The notes beneath the pieces were generated by a model. That model was given only the letters and a program-made list of their open reading frames with translations, made no database searches and was not told the DNA's origin. DNA of 64,000 bases, from positions 1,344,001-1,408,000 of the forward strand of contig CAWHFW010000005.1 in assembly GCA_963828735.1 (NCBI GenBank), in the 5' to 3' direction. Of the stretch, positions 36,574 to 42,125 are shown in pieces. This DNA is from an uncultured Gemmatimonadales bacterium (GTDB lineage: Bacteria > Gemmatimonadota > Gemmatimonadetes > Gemmatimonadales > GWC2-71-9). Numbering within the stretch: position 1 is the stretch's first letter; every line of letters starts with the position of its first letter. The position numbers were made by a program, and so were the translations under genes.

Positions 36574-37596
36574 TCAGGCTTTCGGCGCGGCCACCTCGCC
36601 GAGGTACCCCATCCCCTGCAGCCGGGCGATCCGCTGGCGGATCGGGGGGTGAGACGCCAGCGCGTCGGCGAACGCTCCCTCGCGCGCGGCGAGCAGCCCC
36701 GGCGCCGGATCCACGATGCAGAGATGCGCCGCGCCGAGCGTGATCGCGCGGGTCGGCGCCGAGGCCGCCTCGAGCTTTTCGAGCGCCGAGGCGAGCGCCA
36801 GGGGGTTACGCGTGAACTGCGCGCCAGTCGCATCGGCCAGGTACTCGCGCTTGCGGCTCACGGCCATCGCGAGGATCCGCGAGACGATCGGCGCCACGAT
36901 CAGGGTCAGCAGCCAGAACCCGAGCAGGAGGATCGCGAGCGGGTTGCCGCCCTTGCCACTCTCACCACTTCCCCCGCCGCCGCTCCGGCCGGCTCGCGAT
37001 CCCCGCATCGTCCGCCCCAGCCCATCGGACATCAGCGCGATCGCGCCGACCATGCCGGCGAGCAGGGTCATGAGCCGCACGTCCAGGTTCTGCACGTGCG
37101 CCATCTCGTGGGCGATGACGGCCTGCAGCTCATCCCGGTTCAGCGTCCGGAGCAGCCCCTGCGTCACCGCGATGCTGGCCGTAGCGGCATCGCGCCCCGT
37201 GGCGAAGGCATTGGGGTCGTCGTCGGGCACGATCCACACTCTGGGCTTGGGCAGCCCCGAGGCGATGGCCATCTCCTCGACCACGTTGACGAGCTGTCGC
37301 TCCTCGGCGGTGGCCGGCTCGACCACCTCCCGCGCGCCGGTGGACCACAACACCTGGCGCGGCCCGAAGCGCCACGAGTACCAGCAGATCCCCGCGGCGG
37401 CGAGGGTCGTGAAGATCCCGATGACCGGAATCACGTGATGGTATTCGCCCGCCGGGGCGTCGGCGGTCAGGAGGCCGAAGGCGAGGTCGCCGCCGAATCC
37501 GACCCAGGCGAAGAAGACGATGAAGCCGATGACGAGCCAGGTAGAGCGGCGGCGATTGGATTCCTGCTGGGCGAAGAGGTTCGCCGCCTCGGTCAC
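36574..37596 (-). CDS. htpX: M48 zinc metalloprotease, HtpX-like
   Basis: PNAFATG, ELQAVIAHEMAH, SRKREYLADA, SHPP...RI. GTGA overlap with lemA. Confidence 0.88.
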   Translation of the reverse strand: MTEAANLFAQQESNRRRSTWLVIGFIVFFAWVGFGGDLAFGLLTADAPAGEYHHVIPVIGIFTTLAAAGICWYSWRFGPRQVLWSTGAREVVEPATAEERQLVNVVEEMAIASGLPKPRVWIVPDDDPNAFATGRDAATASIAVTQGLLRTLNRDELQAVIAHEMAHVQNLDVRLMTLLAGMVGAIALMSDGLGRTMRGSRAGRSGGGGSGESGKGGNPLAILLLGFWLLTLIVAPIVSRILAMAVSRKREYLADATGAQFTRNPLALASALEKLEAASAPTRAITLGAAHLCIVDPAPGLLAAREGAFADALASHPPIRQRIARLQGMGYLGEVAAPKA

Positions 37597-38168
37597 GGCG
37601 CGGGTTTGTTCATCGAGAGATCGACCGTCGGCACGGCCCGCTCGGTGTCGTCGGTGATCTGCCACAGCTCCACGGGTGTGGCCTTGGCGAGCCCGGCGAC
37701 GAGCATCGTTGGGAAGGTGGCCTGGCGGGTGTTGTACTCGGTGGCGACGTCGTTGTACAGCTGGCGCGCGAACCCGATCTTGTTCTCGGTGCTGGTCAGC
37801 TCCTCTTGAAGCTGAGCCACGTTTCCCGTCGCCTTGAGGTCCGGGTAGGCCTCGGTCAGCGCGAACAGCCGGCCGAGCGCCTGCGTCAGCTCCCCCTCGG
37901 CCTTGGCCGTCTGCGCCACGCCCGTCGCGTTCACCGCCTTGTTCCGCGCCGCGATCACCGCCTCGAGCGTGTTCCGCTCGAAATCCATCGCGCCCTTCAC
38001 CGTGTTGACCAGGTTCGGGATGAGGTCGTGGCGGCGCTTGAGCTGTACGTCGATCTGCTTCCAGCCGTTGGCGACCTTGTTCTTGAGCCCGATCAGGCCG
38101 TTGTAGGCGCCGATGACCCAGAAGGCGACGAGCACGACGATCGCGAGGAGGATGAGCACGGCGATCAT
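37593..38168 (-). CDS. lemA: LemA family protein
   Basis: YNGL, IDVQLKRRHDLIPNLV, EAYPDLKA, LQEELTSTENKI.FARQ.YN. Confidence 0.95.
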   Translation of the reverse strand: MIAVLILLAIVVLVAFWVIGAYNGLIGLKNKVANGWKQIDVQLKRRHDLIPNLVNTVKGAMDFERNTLEAVIAARNKAVNATGVAQTAKAEGELTQALGRLFALTEAYPDLKATGNVAQLQEELTSTENKIGFARQLYNDVATEYNTRQATFPTMLVAGLAKATPVELWQITDDTERAVPTVDLSMNKPAP

Positions 38169-38192
38169 GGCGGATCCTTGCGGGGAGGGGAG

Positions 38193-38828
38193 TTAGGGCG
38201 TCACCAGGCCGGCGAGGGCCTGGCGGAACGCCTCCGCGATGGCGGCGACATCGCCGTTGAGGCGAATGACCGGGTGCTGTTCGTCCACCAGCACCTCGAT
38301 GCCTGGAGCGATGGCGATGCGCCGGCACACGGTAGCCGAGCCACCCGCGTCCTCGACCGGCGTGAGCCAGCCGAGCACCGCGCGCCCCACCCGGCCGCGG
38401 CCGGTACCGGGCGCCTGCAGCAGCGCGAGGCGCTCCGGCCGGGGAAGTGCGGGTCCGAGCACGCCGGCGACACGGCGCTCGATGAGATCGCCGGTGAGCC
38501 CGGCGAACTCCCGGGTCATGGTCTCGAGCGTGGCCCCCTCCATCTGTCGCAGCTTGATGGCGAGCACCTGCAGCAGGTGGCGATAGGAGTACACCGCGGC
38601 AGTGCCGCGGCCCTCGGGCGGACTCACGAGCCCGCGGGCGACGTAGAACCGGATCGTCCGCTCGCTCGGCCGCGCGCGAGCCGCGGCGTTCACGGGCACG
38701 ACGCCCGACGCGTCGAGGATCCCACCCGAGAGCGCAGTCAGGTCCCGGAGACCCCAGGGCGCCAGCGTCCGATACTCCCGTAGCGTGGCGAGCGGATCGG
38801 ACGGGGCTGATACGAGGCCGGCGGTCAT
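38193..38828 (-). CDS. MerR-like HTH transcriptional regulator
   Basis: RTIRFYVARGLVSPP.GRG..A.Y..RHLLQVLAIK. Confidence 0.8.
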   Translation of the reverse strand: MTAGLVSAPSDPLATLREYRTLAPWGLRDLTALSGGILDASGVVPVNAAARARPSERTIRFYVARGLVSPPEGRGTAAVYSYRHLLQVLAIKLRQMEGATLETMTREFAGLTGDLIERRVAGVLGPALPRPERLALLQAPGTGRGRVGRAVLGWLTPVEDAGGSATVCRRIAIAPGIEVLVDEQHPVIRLNGDVAAIAEAFRQALAGLVTP

Positions 38829-39229
38829 GCGGGACCGTGGCTCGCGCGGCCTTCAGTGGGGGGACCCTCGAGGGTCGCCATCACCATGCGCCGAAGGTGG
38901 TCGAGCGTGAACGGCTTGAGGAGGAGCGGGCAGCGCTGCAGATCCCGAGGCCAGTGCTCCGTCTCGGCAAAGGTGTCGCCCGTCATGAGGACGATGCGGT
39001 CCGCCAGGCGCGGCCAGCGGCGTGTCAGCGCGAGGTAGAAGGTGTCGCCGGACATCTGCGGCAGATGCAGATCCAGCAGCACGAGATCGACGTCCGCCTC
39101 GTCGAGGAGCTGGTAGGCCAGATGCGCGTCGGCGGCGGACACCACCTCGCATCCCATGGCGCGAAGCGCCCGCTCGAGCGTCCGGCGCAGGCACGCCTCG
39201 TCGTCCACGACGAGGATACGCGGGCTCAT
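38825..39229 (-). CDS. single-domain response regulator (receiver)
   Basis: ILVVDDE, LVLLDLHLP, LMTG, LLKPF. ATGA overlaps on both sides. Confidence 0.9.
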   Translation of the reverse strand: MSPRILVVDDEACLRRTLERALRAMGCEVVSAADAHLAYQLLDEADVDLVLLDLHLPQMSGDTFYLALTRRWPRLADRIVLMTGDTFAETEHWPRDLQRCPLLLKPFTLDHLRRMVMATLEGPPTEGRASHGPA

Positions 39230-40029
39230 GACGCGGCCGCCCGTCGGGCCGGCGTCAAGTACCGGCTGGTGACCATCGCGAGGGCGTCATCGATTGACAT
39301 GGACACGCGGAGCTCTCCCGCGGTGAGGCCGAAGACGGCGCGCAGGTGCATCTGCAGTGTCTTGGTCTTGCTGTAGCCCAGCTTCAGGGCGACGTCCTCC
39401 ACCGTGTATCCCGGATCGAGCAGCAGGCGGTGCGCGTACAGGAGCCGGGTCAGCACCATCACGACGCGGGGCGAGGGAAGGCCGACTTTGGTGAACCAGC
39501 GCTCGCAGGTACGCCTGGTGAGGCGGGCGCGCTCCGCCAGCGCGGTGACGGTCGGCCCCTCGTCGGGCGCGTGCAACATCGCTTCGAGCGCGGTGCGCAG
39601 CTCCGGCGGCAGCTCGCGCAGGATGGGCCCCATGCCCTGGATGACCTGCTGTGACGCGCTCTGCTCCAGCTCCGCCAACAGCGCATTCCTGAGCGATCCC
39701 GGCGCGTCCTCGAACCGATGCACCACGACCCGCCGAATCCCGGCCCGCCCCAGCTCCAGCAGCACGCCCGCCGTAGCCGGGGCGAGCTCCGTGTAGACCA
39801 GGAGCGGCAGGGAGGGGAAGAACTGGCGCAGACGGCCGATCCCGTGGGTTCGGGGCGTCGAGCCGCCCAGAAGCGGGTCCACAACGGCCATCTCTACCGG
39901 CTTCGCGCGAATGCCTTCCACGGCTTCGGGCCAGGTGGCCACGGCCTCCCAGACGAACCGTTCGGGGTCGAGTGAACGGAGTCGGAAAAGGCGTTCGGCG
40001 GGCACGGCGGCGAGAAGAAGATGTCGCAA
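39226..40029 (-). CDS. AraC-family transcriptional regulator with a degenerate receiver-like N-terminal domain
   Basis: TVTALAERARLTRRTCERWF and TVEDVALKLGYS double HTH. Probable TTG start at 40029 after AGGGG (alternative GTG 40005). Confidence 0.88.
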   Translation of the reverse strand: MRHLLLAAVPAERLFRLRSLDPERFVWEAVATWPEAVEGIRAKPVEMAVVDPLLGGSTPRTHGIGRLRQFFPSLPLLVYTELAPATAGVLLELGRAGIRRVVVHRFEDAPGSLRNALLAELEQSASQQVIQGMGPILRELPPELRTALEAMLHAPDEGPTVTALAERARLTRRTCERWFTKVGLPSPRVVMVLTRLLYAHRLLLDPGYTVEDVALKLGYSKTKTLQMHLRAVFGLTAGELRVSMSIDDALAMVTSRYLTPARRAAAS

Positions 40030-40052
40030 AACGGCCCCTATTTGTCGCAAAA
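40022..40052. promoter_or_regulatory. TGTCGCAAAA direct repeat with a 21-bp period (putative AraC-type operator)
   Basis: Identical 10-mers at 40022-40031 and 40043-40052, between the divergent AraC and peptide genes. Confidence 0.65.
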
Positions 40053-40129
40053 AAGGCCTAAACCGGTCGGTCGGCCCAGGGCAGATTGGCCAGACCCCCA
40101 CATCGCACAGTCAGATGAAAGGGCTTCCA

Positions 40130-40273
40130 ATGTCGCGTACCACGACCAAGTGGCTCGTCCTCGCGTCACTAACACTCGCGGGCCTGAGCTCGGCCGCCTG
40201 CACACGAAACGATGCCACCGGGCCCTCGGAGCAGCCGAAGCCCTCGTTCGAGGGACAAGGCGCAAATAACTAA
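40130..40273 (+). CDS. 47-aa secreted lipopeptide precursor (candidate signalling peptide)
   Basis: GAAAGGG RBS; MSRTTTKWLVLASLTLAGLSSAA-CTRNDATGPSEQPKPSFEGQGANN. It has a basic n-region, hydrophobic h-region and lipobox-like Cys24. Confidence 0.75.
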   Translation: MSRTTTKWLVLASLTLAGLSSAACTRNDATGPSEQPKPSFEGQGANN

Positions 40274-41571
40274 GTCGCCTGCAGGGCGAAATCCCGAAGC
40301 CCGATTGCCACTTCCCGGATGGCCGGCGGATGAACCTCGGCCGACGGGAGGAGATCGAGCTCTCGGAGTTCACAGCCGGACAGGTTGGCGATCGTCTGCT
40401 CGAATCGGAAGAACCACGAGTTGAGGCGGTGGTTCTCGGAGTGCGCCTGCCCCGCCAGGAGCAGGTCGCGCGCGCGCACGAATTGACCGAAGCGGGCGAG
40501 ACCCACTCCGGCCTTGAAGTAGAAATCGGCCAGCATGCTCGGCGGCATGCGGGTGCGCGCCGCGTCGCCCTCGGCCCGCCGCCGCTCGAACGCCATCCGG
40601 TTGCCCACCGCCGATTCCATGTCCATCAGCTCGAGCACCGCGTTTAGGCGAACGCCGAAGCTCGTCTTGGAGCGCAGGACGATGTCGAACGCGTTGCGCG
40701 CCGCGTCGTGTGCCCCGATCCCGAGCAGGGCCACGCCGAGATCGCCGAGCACCCGTGTGCGCTGCAGCAGATCGTCGCTCAGCAGGAACGAGCGGTAGAT
40801 CGCCTGGATGGCGTCCACCTGCCGGCCCTCGACCAGCAGCACCGCGCCCAGGTCCGCGTAGGCCATGGCCTCGACCTCTCGGAGCCCCGCGCGATCGGCG
40901 CCAGCCGCGACCTCCTCGGCGATCTGCCGCGCCAGCGGCAGGTTGCCCTGGCCGCGGAGCACGGCGCCACGGCCAAGCCTTGCCCGCAGCACGAGCACCT
41001 TGTCTCTCGCGGTGTCGGCGGCCGACTCGGCCGCGGAGTAGCAGGCCGTGGCAGCAGGCCAGCGCGCCAGGAGACGGTTGAGGCGGCCCGCGAACAGTGC
41101 GGAAGCGGCGAAATCCGGAGCCGGAACGCCCGGGCCATGGGTTCGAACGGCCAGCGCGAGCACCTCGAGCGCCTCTTCGAGCCGGCCCTCGTGCTCGAGG
41201 AAGTAGGCGTATGCCATCAGGCTGAGGCGGAGGCTGGCGAGGGACTGAGCGCCGACGGGAATAGCGTCGGTGATGCCGTGCAGGTGAGCGCTTTCGGGGG
41301 AATCGGCCGGCAGCTCGCGGAGATGACGGCGCACGGCATCCAGCTGCCAGAGCATCCCCTCCTGCCCTCCGGTGCTGTCATCCCGCATCAGCATCCGGTC
41401 CACCAGCCGCGAGACGAGATACGCTCCCAACGCCAGGCGGGCGGACAACTCGCGATCCCGCTCATGTTCGCCACGCGCGCGCTCGAGAAATGGAGCGTGC
41501 GTCAGAACATCGGCGGACGACTCGACCTCACCGAAGAGCTGCTGCGGCGTGAACAGATCGCGTCCTTCCAT
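40270..41571 (-). CDS. cytoplasmic TPR-like all-helical protein
   Basis: Repeated units such as YAYFLEHEGRLEEA, GAVLRGQGNLPLA, LGAVLLVEGRQVDA, LGVALLGIGAHDAA, AGVGLARFGQFVRA. No signal peptide or TM. Confidence 0.85.
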   Translation of the reverse strand: MEGRDLFTPQQLFGEVESSADVLTHAPFLERARGEHERDRELSARLALGAYLVSRLVDRMLMRDDSTGGQEGMLWQLDAVRRHLRELPADSPESAHLHGITDAIPVGAQSLASLRLSLMAYAYFLEHEGRLEEALEVLALAVRTHGPGVPAPDFAASALFAGRLNRLLARWPAATACYSAAESAADTARDKVLVLRARLGRGAVLRGQGNLPLARQIAEEVAAGADRAGLREVEAMAYADLGAVLLVEGRQVDAIQAIYRSFLLSDDLLQRTRVLGDLGVALLGIGAHDAARNAFDIVLRSKTSFGVRLNAVLELMDMESAVGNRMAFERRRAEGDAARTRMPPSMLADFYFKAGVGLARFGQFVRARDLLLAGQAHSENHRLNSWFFRFEQTIANLSGCELRELDLLPSAEVHPPAIREVAIGLRDFALQAT

Positions 41572-41699
41572 GAAAAGTGTCGGGGGTCAGGAGCTAGTAT
41601 CGCCCCCCGGGCTCCCCCAGGCAAGGGCACGCAATTTCCGGCAGCCGACGGCAAAAATTGGGTGCCGATCGGGCGGGGGCGCGTCCCTATTCTGGCCCC

Positions 41700-42125
41700 A
41701 TGCGACGCGGCGTTACCATCCTCGAGCTTGCGCTGGTCCTGGTCATCATGGGCCTGGTCACCGGCATCGCGGTGCCCCGGTTCCAGCGGGTCGCCGACGG
41801 CCTCGCGGTTCGCCACGCAGCCCTCGAAGTCGTCTCGGCACACCGGCGCGCCAGGATGAGCGCCATCCTTCAGAATCGCCTTCTCGAGCTCGTTGTCACC
41901 GCCGACACCCTCGCCATCCGGGTTCCCGGAGCGGCGGTCGATCTGTGGCACACCCCGGGGCCGGCGTCCGAGCGGGTGACACTCACGGGCCCCACACGAG
42001 GGCCCGTCTTTTCGCCGGTGGGCCTGACGGTAGGCGTGTCCAATGGGACGTATCGCCTGACTCGAGGCACAGCCACCATCTCGGTTATCGTCTCCCGTCT
42101 CGGTCGCATTCGGCTCGGACCGTGA
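41700..42125 (+). CDS. prepilin-type (GspH/FimT-like) minor pilin/pseudopilin
   Basis: MRRG-VTILELALVLVIMG class III signal with E5; RARMSAI; C-terminal SRLGRIR. Confidence 0.88.
   Translation: MRRGVTILELALVLVIMGLVTGIAVPRFQRVADGLAVRHAALEVVSAHRRARMSAILQNRLLELVVTADTLAIRVPGAAVDLWHTPGPASERVTLTGPTRGPVFSPVGLTVGVSNGTYRLTRGTATISVIVSRLGRIRLGP

Follow-up and report, generated by a model that had tools for sequence, protein, structure and literature searches.

Signaling in diderm bacteria is usually attributed to small molecules, and the Gemmatimonadota among them are common, poorly studied soil bacteria. Rap phosphatases carry a catalytic Gln or Glu in a three-helix bundle that acts on a Spo0F-like receiver, and enterococcal pheromones of the cCF10 type are encoded in a lipoprotein precursor, a large lipoprotein whose signal peptide yields the signal. 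Cytoplasmic peptide-receptor quorum sensing has been described from Bacillota and their mobile elements (PMC10075063, PMC9765709), and RRNPPA hidden Markov models applied to 13,513 genomes had their reported matches in Firmicutes genera (PMC9765709). Lipoprotein-type RRNPP pre-peptides have a precedent there, with 211 of 2,734 propeptides predicted to be signal peptidase II substrates (PMC9765709), and Phr pre-peptides show intragenic core duplications (PMC5199041). The window analyzed here, a stretch of 64,000 nucleotides (nt) from contig CAWHFW010000005.1 of an uncultured Gemmatimonadales bacterium, encodes a receiver-AraC regulator, a 47-amino acid (aa) lipoprotein-type pre-peptide and a 433-aa tetratricopeptide repeat (TPR) protein, which together constitute a conserved regulatory module of Gemmatimonadota (Table 1). 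The genome that carries the window is designated G000, and f1, f2, f3, and f8 are family labels. The reading favored here, with a probability of roughly 0.6, is a Rap-Phr-like autoinducing circuit, in which a core released from the exported lipopeptide would be re-imported and bind the TPR protein, whereupon the AraC regulator would turn on. We infer that the peptide is translated, processed, imported, and bound by the TPR protein, and likewise which partner the TPR protein acts on and with what sign.

The TPR loci compared were the better-scoring of the matches listed and not a random sample, and the tallies partly include the unpublished genomes G003, G104, G219, G196, and G141, on which none of the claims depends. 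Among 182 distinct TPR loci, 179 had at least 400 nt downstream and were scored for a convergent lipopeptide gene, the neighbor that the first-pass annotation had asked for in advance; it was found at 155 of them, against a background of 0.005 per slot (17 open reading frames, or ORFs, elsewhere in 1.11 Mb with the same detector). The detector requires a Cys, and conservation of this residue among its matches is thus built in while the match rate is not; the lipoprotein-type signal was called by a heuristic and not by SignalP. Peptide and AraC genes occurred together in the order of the window at 136 of 173 loci and at all 30 of the best TPR loci (L001-L030, the window included). The peptide link holds down to 20-35% TPR identity and survives rearrangement at L041, L080, L081, and L083. 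The TPR gene was present in 35 of 36 genomes of the same genus, in 10 of 12 genomes of f2 and in none of 12 of f3, and its profile matched 167 of 301 genomes of the phylum at E ≤ 1e-10, weak generic TPR matches included. The window genome has one cassette, two f8 genomes have 13 and 17 TPR matches, many with a peptide of their own, and two Gemmatimonas metagenome-assembled genomes (L225, L226) carry the trio. Homologues were named Gemmatimonadales or Gemmatimonadota and the nearest Atlas clusters were mostly Gemmatimonadota; beyond the phylum, coverage consisted of Atlas features and the best homologue matches, and no claim of absence elsewhere is made. Plasmid or phage homologues were not found. 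The rearranged loci L041 and L081 encode a longer lipoprotein, an AraC regulator, the TPR protein, and a second AraC regulator, all on one strand.

Table 1. Features of the peptide-TPR-AraC cassette; positions count from the first letter of the window.
Feature	Position	Strand	Remarks
Single-domain receiver, 134 aa	38825..39229	-	Overlaps the AraC stop (ATGA); canonical phosphorylation residues
Receiver-AraC regulator, 267 aa	39226..40029	-	Atypical receiver domain and AraC/XylS helix-turn-helix; TTG start (most likely) inside operator box 1
AraC-type operator, two direct repeats, 21-bp period	40022..40060	+	Both A boxes read TGTCGCAAAA (40022-40031, 40043-40052); the B box, GnCCTW, runs into the -35
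Predicted activator-dependent peptide-gene promoter	40059..40087	+	Weak -35 TAAACC (40059-40064), 17-nt spacer, -10-like CAGATT (40082-40087)
Peptide-gene ribosome-binding site, GAAAGGG	40117..40123	+	Purine-rich in relatives too
Pre-peptide, 47 aa, lipoprotein-type	40130..40273	+	Signal peptide in residues 1-23, then Cys24, the tether motif CTRNDATGPS, a variable linker and the core at the C terminus
Core EGQGANN (residues 41-47), the predicted signal	40250..40270	+	Unit tandemly repeated in relatives; presumed to be released from the precursor
TPR protein, 433 aa, cytoplasmic, candidate peptide receptor	40270..41571	-	Rap-like fold with a helical bundle at the N terminus, about seven TPRs and a C-terminal helix

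The peptide gene agrees with its first description as a 47-aa ORF with a good ribosome-binding site, a signal peptide, Cys24 and a mature part of 24 aa ending in FEGQGANN, with the corrections that the linker, which had been called Pro-rich, leaves the mature part with three Pro residues and that the lipobox around the Cys is relaxed (S-A-A-C). Its ORF is convergent with the TPR gene and overlaps it by 4 bp, as had been noted; the stop codons themselves, to which that overlap had been assigned, share 2 bp. Pre-peptides of the family measure 38-91 aa (median 46). Among 33 sequences of the genus, the ratio of nonsynonymous to synonymous polymorphism (pN/pS) of this ORF was 0.37 overall; by segment, the signal had 0.55, C24-S33 had 0.09, the linker had 0.54, and the final eight residues had 0.21. 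A C-terminal core of 7-9 residues is, as judged from sequence variation, under purifying selection. The C terminus is conserved within the genus and differs between lineages, as anticipated for a signal, with ExQGxNN in the lineage of the window and a GxxLGSG type in f8. Five core classes require 10 changes on the TPR tree vs at least 53 with shuffled labels, a result that linkage alone would also give. Two-Cys, disulfide-type rings are found in 58 of 157 peptides, and core-type tandem repeats in 14 of 157 (a fifteenth flagged case is a linker repeat); the repeats arose or changed at least six times on the TPR tree and bring the core to 2-4 copies in L018-L022, seven in L069, and three in L072 and L079. 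Because repeats have periods as short as 7 and insertions sit between F40 and E41, the signal is predicted to be EGQGANN (computed mass about 688 Da); this heptapeptide, rather than the FEGQGANN of the earlier proposal, is the likely signal.

The N-terminal end of the mature peptide probably serves as a tether or sorting mark. A CxxDxTxP-type motif is present in 136 of 157 peptides and also in 31 of 158 larger lipoproteins of the window genome. This motif was considered as the signal itself and rejected, being common on other lipoproteins and never the repeated unit, though it is the most conserved part of the peptide in the genus (pN/pS 0.09). Many of the larger lipoproteins of this genome begin with a C-x-D-x-T-x-P-like tether, possibly a phylum-specific lipoprotein sorting signal. 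The sharing of the tether with ordinary lipoproteins, together with the lipid anchor of the precursor, the uniformity of the core within the genus and the top structural match of the TPR protein to APPBP2, a receptor of C-terminal degrons, lends some weight to an unlikely alternative, a cell-autonomous envelope monitor. There the core would be a readout not of cell density but of lipoprotein export or periplasmic proteolysis in the cell that made it, either because precursor stays trapped in the cytoplasm or because the core is clipped off and immediately taken back up. Such a monitor leaves unexplained the lineage-specific cores and their repeated amplification, the disulfide-type rings and the many paralogous pairs per genome.

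On the other side of the peptide gene, the AraC gene diverges across a tandem operator, as the first-pass annotation had described. The AraC protein matches the helix-turn-helix (HTH) family HTH_18 of Pfam above cut-off (E 2e-13), and an intergenic repeat of period 21 occurs at 99 of 129 loci vs 1 of 645 shuffles; its commonest position is 77-84 nt ahead of the peptide start. The two-box pattern is present in 53 of 53 genomes of the genus and gave no hit in the reversed control. At 33 non-cassette sites picked by the A boxes alone, box 2 is immediately followed by GnCCT, each position of which is kept in 31-33 of 33, and nAnnnT lies 17 nt beyond the -35 position (26 of 33, and 74 of 100 cassette sites); these conserved positions lie outside the search pattern. 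Operator sites were detected in 50 of 52 genomes of the family with a cassette-type AraC vs 2 of 44 without one, these groups having been separated by eye (E ≤ 1e-73 vs ≥ 1e-52). A generic sigma-70 scan detected no promoter, and terminator-like hairpins numbered 2 vs 1.4 ± 1.5 in shuffles. These patterns make AraC a very probable activator of the peptide gene, and autoinduction is likely because the operator abuts the -35 of that gene, co-occurs with the cassette AraC and marks a small regulon. AraC probably represses its own gene, the start codon of which lies within box 1; TTG at 40029 is most likely this start and preferable to GTG at 40101, since AGGGG stands 5 nt upstream and homologues align from there.

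The operator marks, as far as its sequence matches can tell, a small, variable, lineage-specific regulon of accessory genes. Its only other copy in the window genome (C5:1931269-1931307, minus strand, locus L189; score 35.8 vs a control maximum of 9.8) sits 79 nt before the gene of a 318-aa exported protein without a Pfam or PDB match, which carries motifs of SGNH/GDSL-like type, a label that no database match confirms. Targets in relatives include an M28 peptidase and PLD-like, metallophosphoesterase, thioredoxin-like, kinase, and Cap4-like nuclease proteins, as well as many unknown lipoproteins. At L200 and L203 operators precede genes for a DUF4062 protein and a Cap4-like nuclease, a hint of density-controlled defense genes in some strains. 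That the operator is directed at the peptide gene would also suit a very unlikely interpretation, in which AraC would have the lipopeptide as its output, whether as a surface tag, as a small effector, or as a precursor resembling ribosomally synthesized and post-translationally modified peptides (RiPPs), the TPR protein would be its chaperone, immunity, or processing factor, and the core would be no signal. Multi-core precursors occur in RiPPs, and one homologous TPR protein weakly matches the RiPP-associated HaaT model (E 2.8e-8, 32 bits vs a cut-off of 1125). Against it, no modifying enzyme or exporter was detected beside the cassette in the window or among recurring neighbors, and the region upstream of the TPR gene yielded no operator in the window, with sites above threshold in 3 of 149 loci in each direction and thus pointing towards the TPR gene in only three; the TPR protein therefore does not look co-induced with the peptide. 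The three operators pointing away are second copies located 5' of the TPR gene at L078, L131, and L157.

Two receiver domains accompany the HTH domain, and both had been proposed as possible targets of the TPR protein. The N-terminal domain of AraC has the receiver fold that had been suspected; its D51 is near-invariant, and the canonical response-regulator residue set is incomplete, lacking the acidic pair after β1 and the Lys after β5. The adjacent single-domain receiver, identified by its Pfam receiver domain, travels with the cassette and is its fourth member in Gemmatimonadales, following AraC in 98 of 130 loci and retaining D10 and D53 in 100 of 100 sequences and K105 in 99 of 100; its divergence tracks that of the TPR protein (r 0.93) and of AraC (r 0.88). 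A cassette-borne receiver with invariant phosphorylation residues and the retention of Asp51 in AraC would also be expected if an unlinked histidine kinase perceived the peptide outside the cell and phosphorylated either domain, the TPR protein being an intracellular adaptor or phosphatase and not the receptor, an arrangement without any re-import problem. This is quite unlikely in view of the adjacency of TPR and peptide genes, which is the tightest link in the module (at f8 loci the peptide is present in 18 of 25 and a canonical AraC in 8 of 25), of core variation that tracks the TPR groove, and of an AraC without the acidic pair and Lys needed for normal phosphorylation.

The TPR protein was described as lacking an HTH or catalytic motif, and Pfam gave sub-threshold TPR matches only (TPR_12, E 3.5e-6), with HTH and enzyme families absent at E ≤ 0.1; neither this protein nor the peptide has an NCBIfam family. 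Its AlphaFold model (predicted local distance difference test, pLDDT, 94.9) ends in a C-terminal helix after a flexible linker. The suggested fold search against Rap, NprR, and AimR, run over 48,161 chains, placed RRNPP proteins of these three kinds at five of the top 10 positions. The model scored Z 22.7 against Rap 8rte (298 residues aligned, root-mean-square deviation, rmsd, 6.9), and residues 45-383 superposed on residues 9-362 of the Rap-pLS20 chain with Z 22.2 and rmsd 7.3, followed by NprR (20.5), AimR (19.8), RapH (19.5), and PlcR (14.3); Rap-pLS20 and RapH align from the N-terminal bundle onward. By Foldseek, LGN ranked first by E-value and Rap-pLS20 ninth, with a TMq of 0.51 that was the best among the best 40 ranks. 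Polar residues are conserved at inner-helix positions (R166, D240, R273, D277, N/E314), groove positions having been inferred from TPR periodicity and not from coordinates. Core similarity tracks the TPR protein over AraC (partial r 0.23 vs 0.03), and columns of the TPR3-7 groove carry more of this signal than matched columns, at a nominal p of 0.008, which was obtained for one set out of four tried and takes no account of kinship. Five orphan TPR proteins at the same pilin-TPR-MerR-LemA site (L095, L098, L103, L122, L128), where peptide, AraC, and receiver are absent and groove residues have changed, retain 28% of conserved groove residues vs 71% of other TPR residues. Prediction of a complex between the TPR protein and peptide residues 18-47 gave ipSAE values of 0.35, 0.02, and 0.22 around a mark of 0.32, without folded controls, and counts neither way. 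With regard to the catalytic Gln or Glu of Rap, Q76 and E93 are conserved in f1 and variable elsewhere.

The favored circuit would proceed as follows. The pre-peptide would be exported and lipidated at Cys24, and an envelope protease would free the C-terminal core, about EGQGANN here and in many relatives a disulfide-closed ring or a tandem array. The core would accumulate outside, or move by contact or vesicles, and could re-enter through Opp/Dpp, POT, or OPT transporters; the window genome has genes for signal peptidase II, for four Opp/Dpp-type binding proteins of full length, and for one POT and one OPT transporter, none of them linked to the cassette. Inside, the core would bind the concave groove of TPR3-7 and thereby switch on the receiver-AraC regulator, by analogy with Rap most likely through an end to sequestration or dephosphorylation by the apo-TPR protein, which would act on the AraC receiver or on the co-transcribed single-domain receiver. 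AraC would then bind the 21-bp direct repeats, activate the peptide gene in positive feedback together with the small lineage-specific regulon, and probably repress its own gene.

Several observations weigh against this circuit, beginning with the limits on the groove covariation given above. A lipid anchor and two membranes separate the precursor from a receptor in the cytoplasm, and five neighbor queries showed neither a protease nor an importer gene among the recurring neighbors checked. The core is almost uniform across the whole genus, and strain-level specificity is hence weak. The TPR fold is not diagnostic, since TPR proteins outside RRNPP score as high or higher (APPBP2, Z 26.5; APC5, 24.1; MalT III, 23.1), and no Rap, NprR, or AimR chain appeared among the 60 listed of 105 PDB sequence matches. 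The five syntenic orphans stem from two genera, and a kinship-aware comparison of groove decay on D277 was not significant (3.8 vs 1.1 of 9 pairs, median p 0.375). Orphan TPR proteins also persist in genomes without the cassette AraC (G087, G171, G273, G220, G291), so that the protein has or has gained another role or partner there. Enrichment of export signals in the regulon is only marginal (14 of 30 vs 295 of 948, p 0.054). Linkage, selection, core repeats, folds, and the geometry and distribution of the operator partly support the RRNPP-analogous diderm circuit that was first proposed, which may serve quorum, contact, or cell-autonomous sensing.

Compared with described systems, the cassette is closest to Rap-Phr. 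The TPR protein is HTH-less, has an N-terminal helical bundle and aligns with Rap over its whole length, a small exported pre-peptide with a C-terminal core is encoded next to it, receiver-type partners lie next door, and intragenic core duplication, paralogue expansion, and orphans are found in both. Unlike Rap-Phr, the host is diderm, the peptide gene is convergent with the receptor gene, the precursor is almost always of lipoprotein type and often carries a two-Cys ring, the output is a dedicated, linked receiver-AraC regulator with its own operator, no sequence-level match appears among those listed and plasmids or phages gave no cassette. NprR-NprX, PlcR-PapR, and AimR-AimP share the TPR fold at the Z scores given above and have an autoinduced peptide gene, as is likely for the cassette, and PapR and NprX also resemble it in their heptapeptide-sized core; in these systems, unlike here, the DNA-binding domain is fused to the TPR domain, its counterpart being a separate AraC-family protein. 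The signal of the cassette is predicted to be the C terminus of a dedicated micro-lipoprotein, unlike that of cCF10-type pheromones. AraC has the C-terminal double HTH and the direct-repeat operator of the AraC/XylS family, and the operator resembles the class II type in its pair of direct repeats, both of which combine an A with a B box and the proximal one of which abuts the -35, an A/B-box design described for XylS (PMC5481539). Unlike regulators of that class, the cassette AraC has a receiver fold in place of a small-molecule pocket, and its input appears to be a partner protein. Measured by the five RRNPP criteria of PMC10075063, the pair falls at the 'relaxed' level: the propeptide has 47 aa within a range of 10-100 aa, the Sec signal is a heuristic lipoprotein-type call that belongs to the 'relaxed' level only, the receptor has 433 aa within 250-500 aa and a TPR superhelix in the model, and the two genes are neighbors (overlapping by 4 bp in the window and adjacent at 155 of 179 loci). 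The host range, Bacillota and mobile elements, differs from the Gemmatimonadales and Gemmatimonadota that carry the homologues. The cassette would work like Rap-Phr but is not assigned as an RRNPP member; it may or may not share its descent with Rap, NprR, PlcR, and AimR.

The module is apparently undescribed, in keeping with the first impression of the arrangement; a search of the open-access literature, subscription papers lying outside it, found no description of such a system in Gemmatimonadota. We tentatively suggest a broader view, in which the cassettes form an intracellular peptide system for quorum or kin sensing that extends across this diderm phylum and arose independently of RRNPP. 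A tethered micro-lipoprotein would store one or several linear or disulfide-ring signals, which would be released, cross two membranes and be read by a cytoplasmic TPR switch over a pseudo-receiver AraC, the operator having been repeatedly recruited before accessory genes. If the proposed circuit holds, the Gemmatimonadota gain a communication channel, RRNPP signaling is extended or paralleled across the monoderm-diderm divide, and a new question arises as to how a lipid-anchored peptide reaches a cytoplasmic receptor. The model is directly testable because the predicted signal is a 7-mer and the predicted promoter is defined to the base, and more than 150 natural candidate receptor-peptide pairs offer a specificity matrix and possibly orthogonal inducible switches.

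The genes around the cassette (36574-38828, minus strand, and 41700-42125, plus strand) encode MerR-like, LemA-like, HtpX-like, and GspH-like pilin proteins, the LemA-like and HtpX-like names being presumptive and based on motifs. They are syntenic within the family and are not part of the cassette, since they are kept when it is lost. The TPR gene begins with an ATG that is not preceded by a Shine-Dalgarno sequence (41572-41600) and may be leaderless or differently started. Shorter TPR paralogues of about 340 aa in f8 (L167, L172, L175) have no peptide or AraC gene nearby. Small shares of the stretch are contained in 23 soil RNA runs, and one RNA contig, from the four runs examined, spans 40119-40269 without differences; its cover is low and scattered over neighboring genes, with DNA carry-over possible, and it was not used as evidence of expression. 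A second receiver-AraC paralogue is encoded in the window genome (G000:C5:1593546-1594481, minus strand), with no TPR-profile match or small lipoprotein listed nearby, and the profile of its family matches all 198 Gemmatimonadales genomes searched, those without a cassette included.

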